A DNA stretch of 64,000 bases from Enterobacteria phage vB_EcoM_IME341: sequence record MH051917; one strand, given 5' to 3'. Position 1 is the first letter of the stretch. The number at the start of each line of letters is the position of its first letter. This document shows, piece after piece, positions 4,910 through 40,437 of the stretch. The notes beneath the pieces were generated by a model that saw only the letters and a list, made by a program, of their open reading frames with translations, was not told the origin of the DNA and made no database searches. Made by a program: the position numbers and the translations under genes.

Positions 4910-5020
4910 ATGAAAAATTTACTTAAAGCAATTTGGAACATGTTTGTGTTGTTAATGGTATTGAGCATTTTCCCAATCGTTTTTATGATTGACCATGTAC
5001 GTGTATTCTTTAACTTCTGA
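4910..5020 (+). CDS. small hydrophobic peptide (36 aa)
   Basis: short ORF MKNLLKAIWNMFVLLMVLSIFPIVFMIDHVRVFFNF downstream of promoter; below track length cutoff. Confidence 0.25.
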   Translation: MKNLLKAIWNMFVLLMVLSIFPIVFMIDHVRVFFNF

Positions 5021-5030
5021 GGAAAATATT

Positions 5031-5243
5031 ATGAAACTTTTTAAAGATGTTGCAGTTGGTGAGAGCTTTGTATTACATAATGGTCAACAACTGATTCGCA
5101 TTTCTCCTTTGCAAGTCGGGACCGAATTACAACCTGTTAATGCTACAGACCTTTACGATTCAACTAAGCGCTTTTGTGTAGGCCCCAGTGTACAGTGCCT
5201 TACCGTTGATGAACTGATGGCTATTTCTGTTGACGCTGAATAA
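5031..5243 (+). CDS. hypothetical protein
   Basis: ATG 5031 after SD tgaggaaaa; track ORF begins at TTG 4989. Confidence 0.4.
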   Translation: MKLFKDVAVGESFVLHNGQQLIRISPLQVGTELQPVNATDLYDSTKRFCVGPSVQCLTVDELMAISVDAE

Positions 5244-5253
5244 GGAAATTATC

Positions 5254-5598
5254 ATGTCTAAAATCTTTTTTGGTAATGCTAAGGTAATGTTCTTTAAACA
5301 ACTCAGCCTTCAGGATGCATCGGTGGCATTCAATCAAAGTATGATTCCTGGCGTAGATTCAAAAATTATGACGAGTGCTGATTTCGTTTTTGTTCAAGAC
5401 CCGGAAACGGGCTTTTATCGGTTCATTAAATTTCGTATGAGTATGGACCCGTATTATCATAGCGGCTATTATGTGAGTTATGAAAATGTTATCAAAGAAC
5501 TACATGATACTTACGGACAGGCTTTGAACCCACTGAACAAGGTTTATAATGCTACCTTTTATACAAGCGGATTTATTTTAGAACAGCTACAAAAATAG
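5254..5598 (+). CDS. hypothetical protein
   Basis: ATG 5254 after SD aaggaaa; 114 aa. Confidence 0.45.
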   Translation: MSKIFFGNAKVMFFKQLSLQDASVAFNQSMIPGVDSKIMTSADFVFVQDPETGFYRFIKFRMSMDPYYHSGYYVSYENVIKELHDTYGQALNPLNKVYNATFYTSGFILEQLQK

Positions 5599-5634
5599 TT
5601 TACAACCTCGAGAATCATGTTATAATGGTTCTCG
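5598..5634 (+). promoter_or_regulatory. early promoter with -10 inside short hairpin
   Basis: GTTTAC 5598-5603, TATAAT 5621-5626, spacer 17; stem cgagaa (5609-5614) / ttctcg (5629-5634). Confidence 0.6.
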
Positions 5635-5675
5635 TTGACTGGATAACAAAACATTAATCTACTGAGGAAATTGAT

Positions 5676-6125
5676 ATGAATACTTATATGACTCGCCGTA
5701 ACGTTCTGTCTGCTGGTGCTACTACTGTTGCTTATGTTAAGAATGGTGAATACCAAAATGGTAAACCTTCTAAAGAAATCTCTGCTCAGCCAGGCTTCTA
5801 CTTCTTTGTTAAAGGTGGAGCTGATTCTCGTGTCGTAGCGGCTCGTTTTTATGTCGGTAATCAACGTTCTGCTCAAGGTCTTGATGGAATCGTGGCTAAC
5901 ATTCGTAAGAAACGTTCTCAATCAGCTCGCACTATGGCAGTGAACGGTGTGGTGTATGAAGTTCTTTATGTACCGGCTTCTAAAATGAAACCTCTGACTA
6001 CCGGTTTTGGTAAGGGTCAAATTGCAATGGCTTTCACTCGCAATCATAGTTCCGATCTCCAGACACTGGAAGAAATGAACCGCATGTTGGCTGATAACTT
6101 TAAATTCATTCTGCAGGCTTACTAA
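5676..6125 (+). CDS. ndd: Ndd nucleoid disruption protein
   Basis: 149 aa; [45 protein letters not shown] matches recalled T4 Ndd. Confidence 0.85.
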
Positions 6126-6298
6126 TGAAAGCTCTATTTGTAATGGGTTACCTATTAGTTTTAGCCTTATTCACAGTGACCGGAGCCTTTATGGCTTTAG
6201 GTCTACCTCTTAATGATAATGTGGCTGTCGTTATGTGTGTAGGTGGTGGATTTATTTGTTTTGAACGTTTATGCAAAATGTGTGGTGTGTATGAGTAA
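6125..6298 (+). CDS. small membrane protein (57 aa)
   Basis: hydrophobic ORF, ATG overlaps ndd stop (TAATG); below track cutoff. Confidence 0.35.
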
Positions 6299-6368
6299 TT
6301 TCCATAATGAACATGTGATGCAGTTCTATCGTAACAATCTTAAAACCAAAGGCGTCTTCGGACGCTAA
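6291..6368 (+). CDS. stp: Stp peptide (activator of host PrrC anticodon nuclease / anti-restriction peptide)
   Basis: 25-codon ORF translating [25 protein letters not shown], matching recalled T4 Stp. Confidence 0.7.
6352..6365 (+). other. UUCG hairpin GCGTC-TTCG-GACGC overlapping stp 3' end, immediately 5' of next SD
   Basis: 5-bp stem, ttcg loop, followed by taatgaggaaaatATG. Confidence 0.5.
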
Positions 6369-6378
6369 TGAGGAAAAT

Positions 6379-6540
6379 ATGATTATCCTAGTTTTTATTG
6401 AACTTATTATGGCTATTGTCTGTTCAGTTTGCTTCTTTTTAGGCGTGTGGACCCCTGGTCCGATATTCTTAAGTTTTCTGTTTATTGGCTGGATTCTTTC
6501 TACTTCTGTCGGTTTACTTAAGATGATTAAAAATGATTAA
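6379..6540 (+). CDS. small membrane protein (53 aa; ac-like position)
   Basis: hydrophobic ORF with SD aatgaggaaaa; T4 ac maps between stp and 52. Confidence 0.35.
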   Translation: MIILVFIELIMAIVCSVCFFLGVWTPGPIFLSFLFIGWILSTSVGLLKMIKND

Positions 6541-6673
6541 GAAAATCTTGGGCTACTTGTTAGCCCTTGCTGCTTTATTAGTAGCACTGTATTATGGAGT
6601 AATGTTCGGACTTATCCAAGTTGTGCTTTTTATTTCCGATGTTATTATGGCTATTCATTCACTAGTATGGTAA
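6533..6673 (+). CDS. small membrane protein (46 aa)
   Basis: hydrophobic ORF overlapping previous stop. Confidence 0.3.
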   Translation: MIKKILGYLLALAALLVALYYGVMFGLIQVVLFISDVIMAIHSLVW

Positions 6674-6677
6674 AATT

Positions 6678-8006
6678 ATGGAATTAACATCTCGTGGTTT
6701 AAAAAGTATTATCGACAACGAAGCATTGGCTTATGCAATGTATACTGTCGAAAACCGAGCCATTCCAAATATGATTGATGGCTTTAAACCTGTACAACGT
6801 TTTGTAGTTGCTCGTTGTCTTGATATGGCTCGTGGTAATAAAGAAAAATTCCACAAACTGGCTTCTATTGCTGGTGGCGTGGCCGACCTTGGATATCACC
6901 ACGGTGAAGGTTCTGCTCAGGAAGCAGGGGCTTTGATGGCTAACACATGGAACAACAACTATCCATTGTTAGACGGTCAAGGTAACTTCGGTTCTCGATT
7001 GGTTCAAAAGGCTGCAGCCTCTCGTTATATCTTTGCACGTATTGGAAGTAACTTTGCAAAAGTTTATAAGGACACAGAATATGCTCCGGTTCATGCGGAT
7101 GTCGAACATAAGCCACCGGCTTTTTATCTGCCTATTATTCCTACTGTTCTTCTTAATGGCGTTTCCGGTATTGCAACTGGTTATGCAACTAATATTCTTC
7201 CTCATAGTTTTGATTCTGTTAAGAAAGCTGTATTGCAAGTTCTTCAGGAAAAACGCGTAACCAAACCCAAAGTGGCTTATCCTGAATTCCGCGGTGAAGT
7301 TGTTGAAATTGAACCAGGTAGTTATGAGATTCGTGGAACGTATAAGTTCACATCCCGAACCCAAATGCATATCACGGAAATTCCTTATAAGTACGACCGT
7401 GAAACGTATGTGGCTAAGATATTGGACCCTCTGGAAGACAAAGGGTATATCACATATGACGATGACTGTGACGAGAACGGTTTCGGCTTCAAGGTTAAGA
7501 TTCGTAAAGAATACGAATTGCCTACTGATGAAGATAAGAAACACGAAAAACTCATGAAGGACTTCGGGTTAATCGAACGTCGTTCACAAAACCTGACTGT
7601 CATTAATGAGAAAGGTAAACTTAAGGTTTACGAAGATGCAGTTGAACTGATTCGTGATTTCGTTGAGGTCCGTAAGACCTTTGTACAGAAACGTATTGAT
7701 GGTAAAATCATCGAAACTGAAGAAGCTTTCAAACTGGCATTGGCTAAAGCCACATTTATCAAAGATGTTATTGATGGTGTAGTGGTTATCCAAGGTAAGA
7801 CTCGCAAGGTTTTAACCGAAGAATTGGCTAGTAATAAAGTCTATGGCGAATACGCTGATAAACTAGTGGCCATGAACATTTTCCATATCACATCCGATGA
7901 AGCCAAGAAACTGGCCCTCGAAGCCAAAGCTAAGAAAGAAGAGCACCAATACTGGAAAACCACTGATGTGGTAACTGAGTATGTTAAAGATTTGGAGGCT
8001 CTATGA
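6678..8006 (+). CDS. 52: DNA topoisomerase II medium subunit gp52 (GyrA-like)
   Basis: 442 aa, same length as T4 gp52; N-terminal GyrA-like motifs (AYAMYTVENRAIPNMIDGFKPVQRF). Confidence 0.9.
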   Translation: MELTSRGLKSIIDNEALAYAMYTVENRAIPNMIDGFKPVQRFVVARCLDMARGNKEKFHKLASIAGGVADLGYHHGEGSAQEAGALMANTWNNNYPLLDGQGNFGSRLVQKAAASRYIFARIGSNFAKVYKDTEYAPVHADVEHKPPAFYLPIIPTVLLNGVSGIATGYATNILPHSFDSVKKAVLQVLQEKRVTKPKVAYPEFRGEVVEIEPGSYEIRGTYKFTSRTQMHITEIPYKYDRETYVAKILDPLEDKGYITYDDDCDENGFGFKVKIRKEYELPTDEDKKHEKLMKDFGLIERRSQNLTVINEKGKLKVYEDAVELIRDFVEVRKTFVQKRIDGKIIETEEAFKLALAKATFIKDVIDGVVVIQGKTRKVLTEELASNKVYGEYADKLVAMNIFHITSDEAKKLALEAKAKKEEHQYWKTTDVVTEYVKDLEAL

Positions 8007-8107
8007 GCCTTGGAGTCGAGTTCTTGTTACTCTGTATCTTTGCTGTTATTCTAGGCCTGGCAACAGGCTTAGCTATAGGTTTAATAGCAGCCCACTTTAA
8101 AAAGTAA
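8003..8107 (+). CDS. small membrane peptide (34 aa)
   Basis: MSLGVEFLLLCIFAVILGLATGLAIGLIAAHFKK; ATG overlaps gp52 stop. Confidence 0.3.
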   Translation: MSLGVEFLLLCIFAVILGLATGLAIGLIAAHFKK

Positions 8108-8129
8108 GGAACCTTCGGGTTCCTTTTTT
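8108..8129 (+). terminator. rho-independent terminator
   Basis: ggaacc-ttcg-ggttcc hairpin followed by T6. Confidence 0.7.
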
Positions 8130-8147
8130 GGGTTTAGTGAAAAAAGT

Positions 8148-8176
8148 GTTTACTTCTGCTTTAAACATGATACTAT
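8148..8176 (+). promoter_or_regulatory. T4-type early promoter
   Basis: GTTTAC 8148-8153, TACTAT 8171-8176, spacer 17; followed by conserved tatagacctatcaa. Confidence 0.6.
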
Positions 8177-8214
8177 AGACCTATCAAAACAACAGAGTGA
8201 AATGGAGATACAAA

Positions 8215-8436
8215 ATGAAAACCTTAAATATTAATTCTTTTTTCTACAATGCTAATACCGATCATGCAATGTTCTTTGATTGTGATTTAGATACTTATAT
8301 CCATGTATGGGGTGTTAAGTCAGATAAAGTGGTTGTTAAGAAAAATTTAAAAACCGGTAATGGTCGTGGTCAAGCTAAAATTTCTTCCAAGAAAGTTGTT
8401 GAAGCTTATGTTGATTATGTTAAAAGCGCAATTTAA
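8215..8436 (+). CDS. hypothetical protein
   Basis: ATG 8215 after SD ggagata; track ORF starts at GTG 8197. Confidence 0.4.
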   Translation: MKTLNINSFFYNANTDHAMFFDCDLDTYIHVWGVKSDKVVVKKNLKTGNGRGQAKISSKKVVEAYVDYVKSAI

Positions 8437-33422: not shown

Positions 33423-33836
33423 ATGAAAGAAATCGCAGACGAATTTAGCTTTATCAAGTACGTCACCCTAGAACTCCAAGATGACGCCACCATAGCTCCA
33501 CTCACAGTACCAAATAAACAAAATGTCATATATGCTATAGCGGTTGATGATATACTAGTCTACATCGGGAAGACTAAAAATCTTCGTAAGCGCATCAACT
33601 ACTACCGAACCGCTATTAATCGTAAGGACCAAACGTCAGATTCGACTAAGTCCATTCTGATTCATGAAGCATTAATGGCAGGTAAAAAGGTAGAGTTCTA
33701 TGCACGGCAGTGCTTTAATCTGTCGATGACTAACGAACTTGGAACTATGTCAGTTGAGACCATGTCTCTTGAAGAGCCAATGTTCATAAAGAAATTTAAT
33801 CCACCTTGGAATACCCAACATAGGATAAAGCAATGA
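33423..33836 (+). CDS. denA: endonuclease II (GIY-YIG family)
   Basis: MKEIADEFSFIKY..NVIYAIAVDDILVYIGKTKNLRKRINYYRTAINRKD closely matches recalled T4 EndoII. Confidence 0.85.
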   Translation: MKEIADEFSFIKYVTLELQDDATIAPLTVPNKQNVIYAIAVDDILVYIGKTKNLRKRINYYRTAINRKDQTSDSTKSILIHEALMAGKKVEFYARQCFNLSMTNELGTMSVETMSLEEPMFIKKFNPPWNTQHRIKQ

Positions 33837-34981
33837 TTGAATTATATGATAACTTGATGGCCCTGGTTAAAAACTCGACTAAATCTAAGTTCTTCTTTAA
33901 AGACTTTCAGAGTGCGCTAGGAGTCAACTATCGCATCTTTAGTTATAACTATGCATCGTACAGTGATTGGTTGGAAGACGGCGCCCTAGAGTGTCGAGGC
34001 ATTATGTTTGAAATGGACGAGAATGGTCCGGTACGTATTGCTGCTCGTCCTATGCAAAAGTTCTTTAACCTCGACGAAAACCCTATGACTATCGGTCTGG
34101 ACTTGTCGCCAGAAAATATCGACCTCGTAATGGCTAAGGAAGATGGTTCTCTGATTTCTACATTCATGGACCGACAGTATCTTTCTGTTAAATCTAAAGG
34201 CTCTATCCATTCGTCAATGGTGCACGATTCTTTACGTTTCCTTCGTCTCCCTGAGAACGAGGCTTTTGCCGCACGTCTAGAAGAAATCACCAAAGCCGGG
34301 TATACCTGCAACCTTGAATATGTCGCACCTACCAACCGTATCGTGCTGGCTTACCAAGAAACGAACCTCATCCTGTTAAACGTTCGTAATAATGAAACAG
34401 GTGAGTATATTCCATATGCTGAACTGTTTAAGGACGGCGCGCTGCGTAAGCATTTGGTTGAAAGTTATGACCTCACCGAAGGTGATTTCGTAGAAAACAT
34501 CCGTAAACAAGAGGGTATTGAAGGTTTTATCTTTGTACTGAAAGATGGTACGTTCTTTAAACTCAAAACTGCATGGTACAGTGCACTGCATCATACCAAA
34601 GATTCCATTAACAATAACGAACGTTTGTTTGAAGTTGTAGTGGCGGGTGGAACTGATGACCTTCGTGGTCTGTTCAGTACAGATTCGTTTGCTATCGAGA
34701 AAATCGATGCCTTCGAACGTATCCATTTAGATTACTTAGAACAATCATTGGCTTTGTTGGAAGCAGCTTACTCTCAACTCAAGGGCCGCGACCGTAAAGA
34801 CTACGCTGTTACTGGACAGCTAATCCTTAAGGACTTCCCAGGGTTGTTCTCTATTCTTATGCAGGCGTACGTAGGCGGTATTAATTATGATACGGTTGTA
34901 GACCAGATTAACTCTGTGTTCTTGAAAAACCATAAAGCCCAAATCCCTGAAAAATATTTGAAAGAAATTGCGGTAGAGTAG
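33833..34981 (+). CDS. rnlA: RNA ligase 1
   Basis: 382 aa; YRIFSYNYASYSDW..ECRGIMFEMD..KEDGSL (adenylation lysine motif) match recalled T4 Rnl1. Confidence 0.9.
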   Translation: MIELYDNLMALVKNSTKSKFFFKDFQSALGVNYRIFSYNYASYSDWLEDGALECRGIMFEMDENGPVRIAARPMQKFFNLDENPMTIGLDLSPENIDLVMAKEDGSLISTFMDRQYLSVKSKGSIHSSMVHDSLRFLRLPENEAFAARLEEITKAGYTCNLEYVAPTNRIVLAYQETNLILLNVRNNETGEYIPYAELFKDGALRKHLVESYDLTEGDFVENIRKQEGIEGFIFVLKDGTFFKLKTAWYSALHHTKDSINNNERLFEVVVAGGTDDLRGLFSTDSFAIEKIDAFERIHLDYLEQSLALLEAAYSQLKGRDRKDYAVTGQLILKDFPGLFSILMQAYVGGINYDTVVDQINSVFLKNHKAQIPEKYLKEIAVE

Positions 34982-36816: not shown

Positions 36817-38016
<1,200 letters not shown>

Positions 38017-38017
<1 letters not shown>

Positions 38018-39892: not shown

Positions 39893-40437
39893 TGAAAGCA
39901 AGCACATACCTTCAGATTGCATATCTGATTTCTCAAGAATCAAAATGTTGTTCATGGAAAGTGGGTGCGGTTATCGAAAAGAATGGTCGCATTATCTCTA
40001 CAGGCTATAACGGTTCACCGTCTGGTGGTGTTAACTGTTGTGACCACGCTGTAGAACAGGACTGGACTCGTGTTGTGTATGACCCAGCTCGAATGTCGCA
40101 TAAATCCGTTCTTCTTAAAGAACACCGTATGGCTCACGCTGCATGGTCATCTAAAAATGAAATCCATGCTGAACTGAATGCTATTTTGTTTGCAGCTCGT
40201 ACCGGAAGTTCTATTGATGGCGCTACGATGTACGTGACGTTATCTCCGTGCGCTGATTGTGCTAAGTCTATTGCGCAGTCTGGAATTAAAACATTGGTTT
40301 ATGCTGAGCTCTATGACCGAAATCCTGAAGGTTGGGACGATATCCTCCGTGAATCAGGCATCGAAGTTATCCAGTATAATCGTACAGGGCTCCGTTCTTT
40401 GAACTGGGAATCAATTCAAAACTATTGTGGTGAATAA
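39892..40437 (+). CDS. cd: dCMP deaminase
   Basis: 181 aa; CSWKVGAVIEKNGRIISTGYNG, HAE and SPCxDC zinc-binding motifs match recalled T4 Cd. Confidence 0.9.
   Translation: MKASTYLQIAYLISQESKCCSWKVGAVIEKNGRIISTGYNGSPSGGVNCCDHAVEQDWTRVVYDPARMSHKSVLLKEHRMAHAAWSSKNEIHAELNAILFAARTGSSIDGATMYVTLSPCADCAKSIAQSGIKTLVYAELYDRNPEGWDDILRESGIEVIQYNRTGLRSLNWESIQNYCGE

Follow-up and report, generated by a model that had tools for sequence, protein, structure and literature searches.

On the sequence evidence, the 25-codon open reading frame (ORF) at positions 6291-6368 of the 64,000-nucleotide stretch of phage vB_EcoM_IME341 that we analyzed (hereafter the window) is a genuine stp gene, an already-known gene correctly recognized in a relative of T4. 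Taking all lines of evidence together, we consider it very probable that this ORF is a functional orthologue of T4 stp that would be expressed within an early ndd-orf57-stp-orf53-52.1-52 string, would be translated by coupling, and would act much as its T4 counterpart does. The features of this interval are as follows.

5599-5626, + strand: promoter-like site of the sigma-70 type upstream of ndd, TTTACA-16-TATAAT preceded by TG, 11/12, a consensus match only.
5676-6125, + strand: ndd, nucleoid disruption protein, 149 aa (PF06591, 230 bits; phrog_1102).
6125-6298, + strand: orf57, 57 aa with two hydrophobic segments (phrog_5941, E = 1.6e-27).
6291-6368, + strand: stp, 25-aa peptide (PF08133; phrog_6763; 25/25 to T4 Stp).
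6351-6366, + strand: GGCGUC-UUCG-GACGCU, a hairpin with a C(UUCG)G tetraloop that takes in stp codons 21-25 plus the first nucleotide of the stop.
6379-6540, + strand: orf53, 53 aa with two hydrophobic segments (phrog_9347), in the ac slot and with no homology to Ac.
6533-6673, + strand: gene 52.1, 46-aa membrane hairpin (PF24129 (DUF7396), 79.5 bits; phrog_3595).
6678-8006, + strand: gene 52, topoisomerase II medium subunit, 442 aa (from the ORF list; annotated as gene 52 in C6, JS98, and T4).

A listing of ORFs of at least 20 aa places four + strand ORFs, of 57, 25, 53, and 46 aa, closely packed inside 6125-6673. By itself, a 25-codon ORF is no evidence of a gene; it is the profile score, the identity to T4, and the gene order that identify this one as stp. 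In a profile search, the 25-mer matched positions 1-25 of the 26 positions of PF08133, the anticodon nuclease activator family (Nuclease_act), with 72.1 bits (E = 2e-20) against a curated gathering cut-off of 25 bits, and it matched phrog_6763 with E = 1.6e-20. The initial annotation had recognized the T4 Stp peptide in this ORF and had proposed alignment with T4 Stp as a check. The recognition is borne out by the profile score, by the T4 gene order, and by the alignment itself, in which all 25 residues of the window peptide are the same as in T4 Stp (NP_049878, 26 aa). Gln26 alone is missing in the window, where codon 26 is TAA compared to CAG in T4. The 25-mer is hydrophilic, with a GRAVY of -0.94.

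Loss-of-function mutations in T4 stp concentrate at residues 4-14, and the first 18 residues are almost invariant across T4 relatives (PMC3014915). In the window, residues 1-18, and with them the mutation-sensitive positions 4-14, are unchanged from T4. Because the whole functional region is identical, T4-like activity is expected of the window peptide. The loss of Gln26 is very unlikely to matter, given that T4 Stp lacking its eight C-terminal codons is just moderately reduced in both of its activities (PMC3014915). A longer reading of stp from an upstream GTG (6243, 41 aa) was rejected; homology starts at the ATG, and T4, KIT01, and JS10 are without the extension.

The T4 reference order is ndd-stp-ac-52.1-52, compared to ndd-orf57-stp-orf53-52.1-52 in the window, so that in both a peptide of about 26 residues, 25 in the window, lies between ndd and gene 52. 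Synteny of stp with T4 holds because the large ORFs on either side are Ndd and gp52. The 46-aa ORF lies directly upstream of gene 52, and its PF24129 score of 79.5 bits is far above the cut-off of 27 bits.

The sigma-70-type site at 5599-5626 is a candidate early promoter for the whole string. Within the string, the ndd stop and the orf57 start overlap in TAATG, the ATG of stp falls 8 nt within the end of orf57 (ATGAGTAA), and the stop of orf53 and the start of 52.1 overlap as well (ATGATTAA). A GAGG ribosome-binding site upstream of orf53 (6370-6373) matches the site that precedes ac in T4. The sole Shine-Dalgarno-like element before the stp ATG is a weak GGTG, and because this element is weak, translation of stp rests on an assumed coupling to orf57. 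The location of the stp ATG inside the end of orf57 suggests such translational coupling. T4, KIT01, and JS10 instead have the ATG of stp overlapping the stop codon of ndd, and stp appears to be coupled in translation to whichever ORF lies upstream in every arrangement that we compared. After gene 52, at 8106-8125, there is a terminator-like hairpin (AAGGAACC-TTCG-GGTTCCTT, followed by a T-run) that is terminator-like on both strands.

A megablast of positions 5600-6750 against the phage collection assigned this region to the genus Dhakavirus (JS98-like, Straboviridae), with C6 as the closest relative at 98.1%. Two Dhakaviruses, JS10 (ACL78482) and KIT01 (BBI57616), have an identical 25-aa allele under the annotation stp, and the gene is therefore already known in this lineage. 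The shortening by one residue, with the peptide ending in GR-stop, is common to the window, JS10, and KIT01. The synonymous variants AAT at codon 6 and ACC at codon 19 occur in both the window and C6, and ACC is also found in the Tequatrovirus ime09.

The stp interval carries no annotation in C6, nor does it in ime09. A tblastn search matched 819 records, and in a spread sample taken from them, just 4 of the 34 annotated T4-like records that carried a near-identical copy named stp, in keeping with the earlier remark that small genes of this kind are often missed. Stp is thus absent from most of the deposited T4-like annotations that were sampled, and a profile search should rescue it in annotation pipelines. 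The result is neither surprising nor novel, yet it is useful for annotation; beyond annotation quality its importance is small, as knowledge of the gene, its product, and its mechanism dates from the 1990s.

The initial annotation also placed pseT and rnlA in the window. Both were found there, with the domains and catalytic motifs of the T4 repair pair.

37109-38017, + strand: pseT, polynucleotide 5'-kinase/3'-phosphatase, 302 aa (PF13671, PF25109; P-loop GCPGSGKS at residues 10-17, DVDGT at residues 166-170).
33833-34981, + strand: rnlA (gene 63), T4-type RNA ligase 1, 382 aa (PF09511, PF20819; KEDG at residue 102).

At the sequence level, the first has both the kinase and the phosphatase of a PNKP, with the P-loop and DxDxT motifs, and the second has the KxDG motif and the C-terminal domain of Rnl1. 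A search of the window for a tRNA-Lys able to bypass PrrC found no tRNA genes.

T4 Stp inhibits the type Ic enzymes EcoprrI and EcoR124I and leaves the type Ia enzymes EcoKI and EcoBI unaffected (PMC3014915). In prr+ cells, PrrC is latent in the EcoprrI complex and is unmasked by Stp, a step that also requires GTP hydrolysis, DNA, and dTTP; PrrC then cuts tRNA-Lys 5' to the wobble base, and T4 polynucleotide kinase/phosphatase and RNA ligase 1 repair the damage (PMC3014915, PMC12707154, PMC12409349). By analogy, stp of the window would probably be transcribed early within its gene string and translated by coupling to the upstream ORF, and the 25-mer would then bind a host type Ic complex such as EcoprrI or EcoR124I via its N-terminal residues, about 18 in number, blocking DNA restriction. 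Where the type Ic locus includes prrC, this inhibition would unmask latent PrrC, leading to cleavage of tRNA-Lys 5' to the wobble base, and the phage's own PseT and Rnl1 would repair the tRNA by end healing and sealing, respectively. It is a reasonable inference that the phage engages the prr axis. The presence of stp, pseT, and rnlA together predicts that this phage, like T4, would survive on prr+ hosts only with its repair genes intact, a dependence that would be relevant if such phages were engineered or used therapeutically. T-even phages usually have hypermodified DNA that already resists type I restriction, and for that reason it is not self-evident what selective benefit Stp would bring to this phage.

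Stp-like peptides are found outside the T4-like phages as well. The core N[FW]HNEH[VI]MQ[FW]YR is present in peptides of siphoviruses with genomes of 40-56 kb, most of them unannotated, including the following.

Kagunavirus PDP21P8, locus 2501-2578: Stp-like peptide, 25 aa.
HelliStehle_Bas95, locus 2501-2578: Stp-like peptide.
Tunavirus Lg3, locus 1201-1281: Stp-like peptide, 26 aa.
Tlsvirus Stevie, locus 151-231: Stp-like peptide.
Skatevirus seszw, locus 151-234: Stp-like peptide.

The Kagunavirus copy has 36% G+C within a locus of 50% G+C, a contrast that suggests import from an AT-rich phage. A search for Stp in T1-like phages found no description in the papers covered, and the annotators of phage Stevie had already noted the similarity. 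When plasmids (PLSDB) were searched for Stp, there was one match, of 96% identity, at 40360-40434 of CP088689.1. This 44-kb non-mobilizable E. coli replicon, which came from blood, may not be a conventional plasmid but a phage or phage-plasmid.

One alternative to the T4-like role is that Stp has been selected in this phage for something other than the type Ic/PrrC system, for example for inhibiting or triggering another defence system, possibly together with the membrane micro-proteins encoded around it. The occurrence of Stp-like peptides in siphoviruses of 40-56 kb, phages in which neither pseT nor rnlA would be expected, speaks for such a role, as does the fact that most E. coli are not prr+ hosts. 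The prr locus has been found in "some hospital strains" (PMC3014915), and the mechanism of inhibition by Stp is still described as unknown (PMC12707154). However, all published Stp activity is on type Ic enzymes, with type Ia enzymes unaffected (PMC3014915), and stp is not obligatorily paired with orf57 or orf53: orf57 is missing beside stp in KIT01, and KpV477 has orf57 but no stp. We regard a different selected role as unlikely, and we favor action on type Ic enzymes as in T4.

Comparison of codons points to the peptide as the conserved entity. Over stp codons 1-25, window and T4 DNA are 96% identical, with 3 differences in 75 nt, of which 3 are synonymous and 0 nonsynonymous. The corresponding identities are 65.3% for ndd and 89.1% for 52.1, and orf53 against T4 ac gives 46.6%, which is essentially unaligned. 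Against the Stp-like ORF of Kagunavirus, an unrelated 43.6-kb phage, window stp has 9 synonymous and 2 nonsynonymous codon differences; against codons 1-16 of the copy in a T1-like Tunavirus, whose tail is unrelated, there are 7 synonymous and 2 nonsynonymous differences. This pattern is the signature expected of a translated peptide with a functional N-terminal core, which agrees with T4 genetics, and we conclude from it that the Stp peptide is under purifying selection.

The hairpin at 6351-6366 has a minimum free energy of -10 kcal/mol (z = -3.1), compared to -11.5 kcal/mol (z = -3.3) for the T4 version, and the JS98 variant keeps it with one G-U pair. The Kagunavirus copy lacks the C(UUCG)G hairpin. 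On the minus strand, the hairpin with its T-rich tail resembles a terminator, and a "terminator" overlapping stp is annotated in at least two deposited genomes. An Rfam scan of both strands of 5000-8300 gave one chance sub-threshold match to a snoRNA and nothing else. Conservation of nucleotides at the 3' end of stp could partly stem from the hairpin rather than from the peptide.

It could be argued from this very stable hairpin, kept at codons 21-25 in the window, in T4, and in modified form in JS98, and from a nucleotide identity to T4 far above that of the neighboring genes, that stp is conserved mainly as an RNA element that stabilizes or processes the early transcript, with the peptide incidental. 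Yet the hairpin spans just 16 of the 78 nt of stp. Outside it lie the N-terminal 16-18 codons, whose amino acid sequence is conserved through many synonymous changes in the hairpin-less copies of Kagunavirus, Tunavirus, and Skatevirus, and T4 genetics places stp function in the peptide (PMC3014915). An RNA element would explain the conservation in part at most, and we think it highly improbable as the main explanation.

Equally little weight falls on the idea that window stp is a decaying remnant that has lost expression or activity, as the second JS98 copy without a start has. That copy, with its ATG destroyed and joined to a 52.1 fragment, shows that dead copies arise at this locus, and window stp lacks codon 26 and is preceded by just a weak ribosome-binding site, but its ATG and frame are intact with 0 nonsynonymous changes relative to T4, the 25-aa allele is fixed in many Dhakaviruses, overlapping stop and start signals offer a route to translation, and T4 Stp keeps activity after C-terminal truncations of up to 8 residues (PMC3014915). 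A functional stp remains our preferred reading of the locus.

The ORFs around stp were described at the outset as three tiny hydrophobic ORFs, and their lengths of 57, 53, and 46 aa, GRAVY values of 1.34, 1.73, and 1.85, and two hydrophobic segments each uphold that description. This hydrophobicity suggests that orf57, orf53, and gene 52.1 encode small proteins of the inner-membrane type. Alignments place orf57 on an exact 166-bp insert (6125-6290) between ndd and stp that is missing from T4 and most Dhakaviruses. Homologues of orf57 occur in 218 phage records, mostly T4-like phages of Klebsiella, and among the matches listed they almost always lie directly after ndd. In the Jiaodavirus KpV477, the genes run ndd-orf57-52.1-52, and stp and ac are both missing. 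Because KpV477 has ndd-orf57 without stp and the homologues adjoin ndd, orf57 is linked to ndd rather than to stp. The pattern FVMGY...FER.CK..GVY is conserved in the phrog_5941 family. The orf57 coding sequence of KpV477 is annotated as 35 aa, and the full 57-aa frame is open (locus positions 901-1074).

Homologues of orf53 were found in 75 phage records, mostly from Dhakaviruses and from T4-like phages of Enterobacter, Kosakonia, or Edwardsiella. One of the three membrane ORFs had been thought likely to be ac, and orf53 does occupy the position of ac between stp and 52.1. This assignment did not survive comparison with Ac itself. BLASTP of orf53 against T4-type Ac gave E = 2.7 with the terminal "ND" alone matched and no similarity. 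In PHROG, T4 Ac and its JS98 homologue orf256 belong to phrog_2501, and the three window ORFs belong to phrog_5941 (orf57), phrog_9347 (orf53), and phrog_3595 (the 46-aa ORF). A tblastn search of the 64-kb window with T4 Ac and JS98 orf256 found no match (best E = 0.18-0.75). All three ORFs were compared with Ac by BLASTP, PHROG assignment, and tblastn, and the ac identity was rejected for each. In JS98, an Ac homologue and the 53-aa ORF are neighbors, and since both are present in one genome, position between stp and 52.1 alone is no proof of orthology to Ac. A Dhakavirus ORF in the ac slot should therefore not carry the label ac.

The history of the locus appears to include exchange of DNA with other T4-like phages. 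DNA identity between the window and Tequatrovirus ime09 is 95.2% in orf57 and 98.7% in stp, and falls to 69-80% on both flanks of orf57-stp; the orf57 and stp copies of JS98 are far less close to the window, at 82.5% and 80%. The window retains the Dhakavirus TAA at codon 26 and has orf53 downstream. Unlike the window, ime09, with the order ndd-orf57-stp-ac-52, keeps Gln26 and has a true ac downstream and a Tequatrovirus-type ndd. This distribution indicates a Tequatrovirus-like orf57-stp patch of about 240 bp in a Dhakavirus backbone, with the right crossover in the 3' end of stp.

Two further observations concern rearrangement in this interval. JS98 (NC_010105, approximately 2194-2575) has two stp-derived sequences. 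The first, which is divergent and intact, encodes 26 aa and is followed by the Ac homologue and a frameshifted 52.1 fragment; the fragment is fused via GGAGTAAT to a second, T4-type stp in which the ATG is now ACG. This arrangement looks like a foreign orf57-stp-ac cassette with a 52.1 fragment that was inserted by microhomology and destroyed the native stp start. The RefSeq record of JS98 annotates neither the 57-aa nor the 53-aa ORF. In addition, when window positions 6678-6720 were compared, gene 52 was seen to have two alternative 5' ends in Dhakaviruses: it starts MELTSRGLKS... (442 aa) in the window, JS98, and KIT01, and MADVIDTLFKQALDVYDDSFTRRDLKS... in C6 (459 aa; C6 locus 2579-2640) and JS10. 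As judged from this comparison, the alternative ends are a further recombination breakpoint just after 52.1.

A broader interpretation is that the ndd-to-52 interval is a hotspot for the exchange of micro-genes, in which stp travels as a mobile module of about 80-240 bp and is an anti-type-I peptide found across coliphages, with orf57 and orf53 as possible host-interaction factors. We put this combined view forward tentatively, as conceivable and somewhat doubtful as a whole. If it is true, Stp is no peculiarity of T-even phages but is horizontally mobile across coliphages.

Close counterparts of the window in which stp is already named are JS10 and KIT01. In both, as in the window, orf53, 52.1, and 52 follow stp; unlike in the window, stp directly abuts ndd and orf57 is absent. 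Relative to T4, the differences lie on both sides of the gene: the ATG of T4 stp overlaps the ndd stop and stp is followed by ac, whereas in the window the 166-bp insert with orf57 intervenes after ndd and stp is followed by orf53. The 51-aa Ac of T4 resembles orf53 in its slot, length, hydrophobicity, upstream ribosome-binding site, and C-terminal ND overlapping the 52.1 start, but the two have no detectable sequence similarity and belong to different PHROG families (2501 and 9347). Common to T4 and the window are the location of stp in the ndd-to-gene-52 interval, the C(UUCG)G hairpin at its 3' end, and the GAGG site for the next gene.
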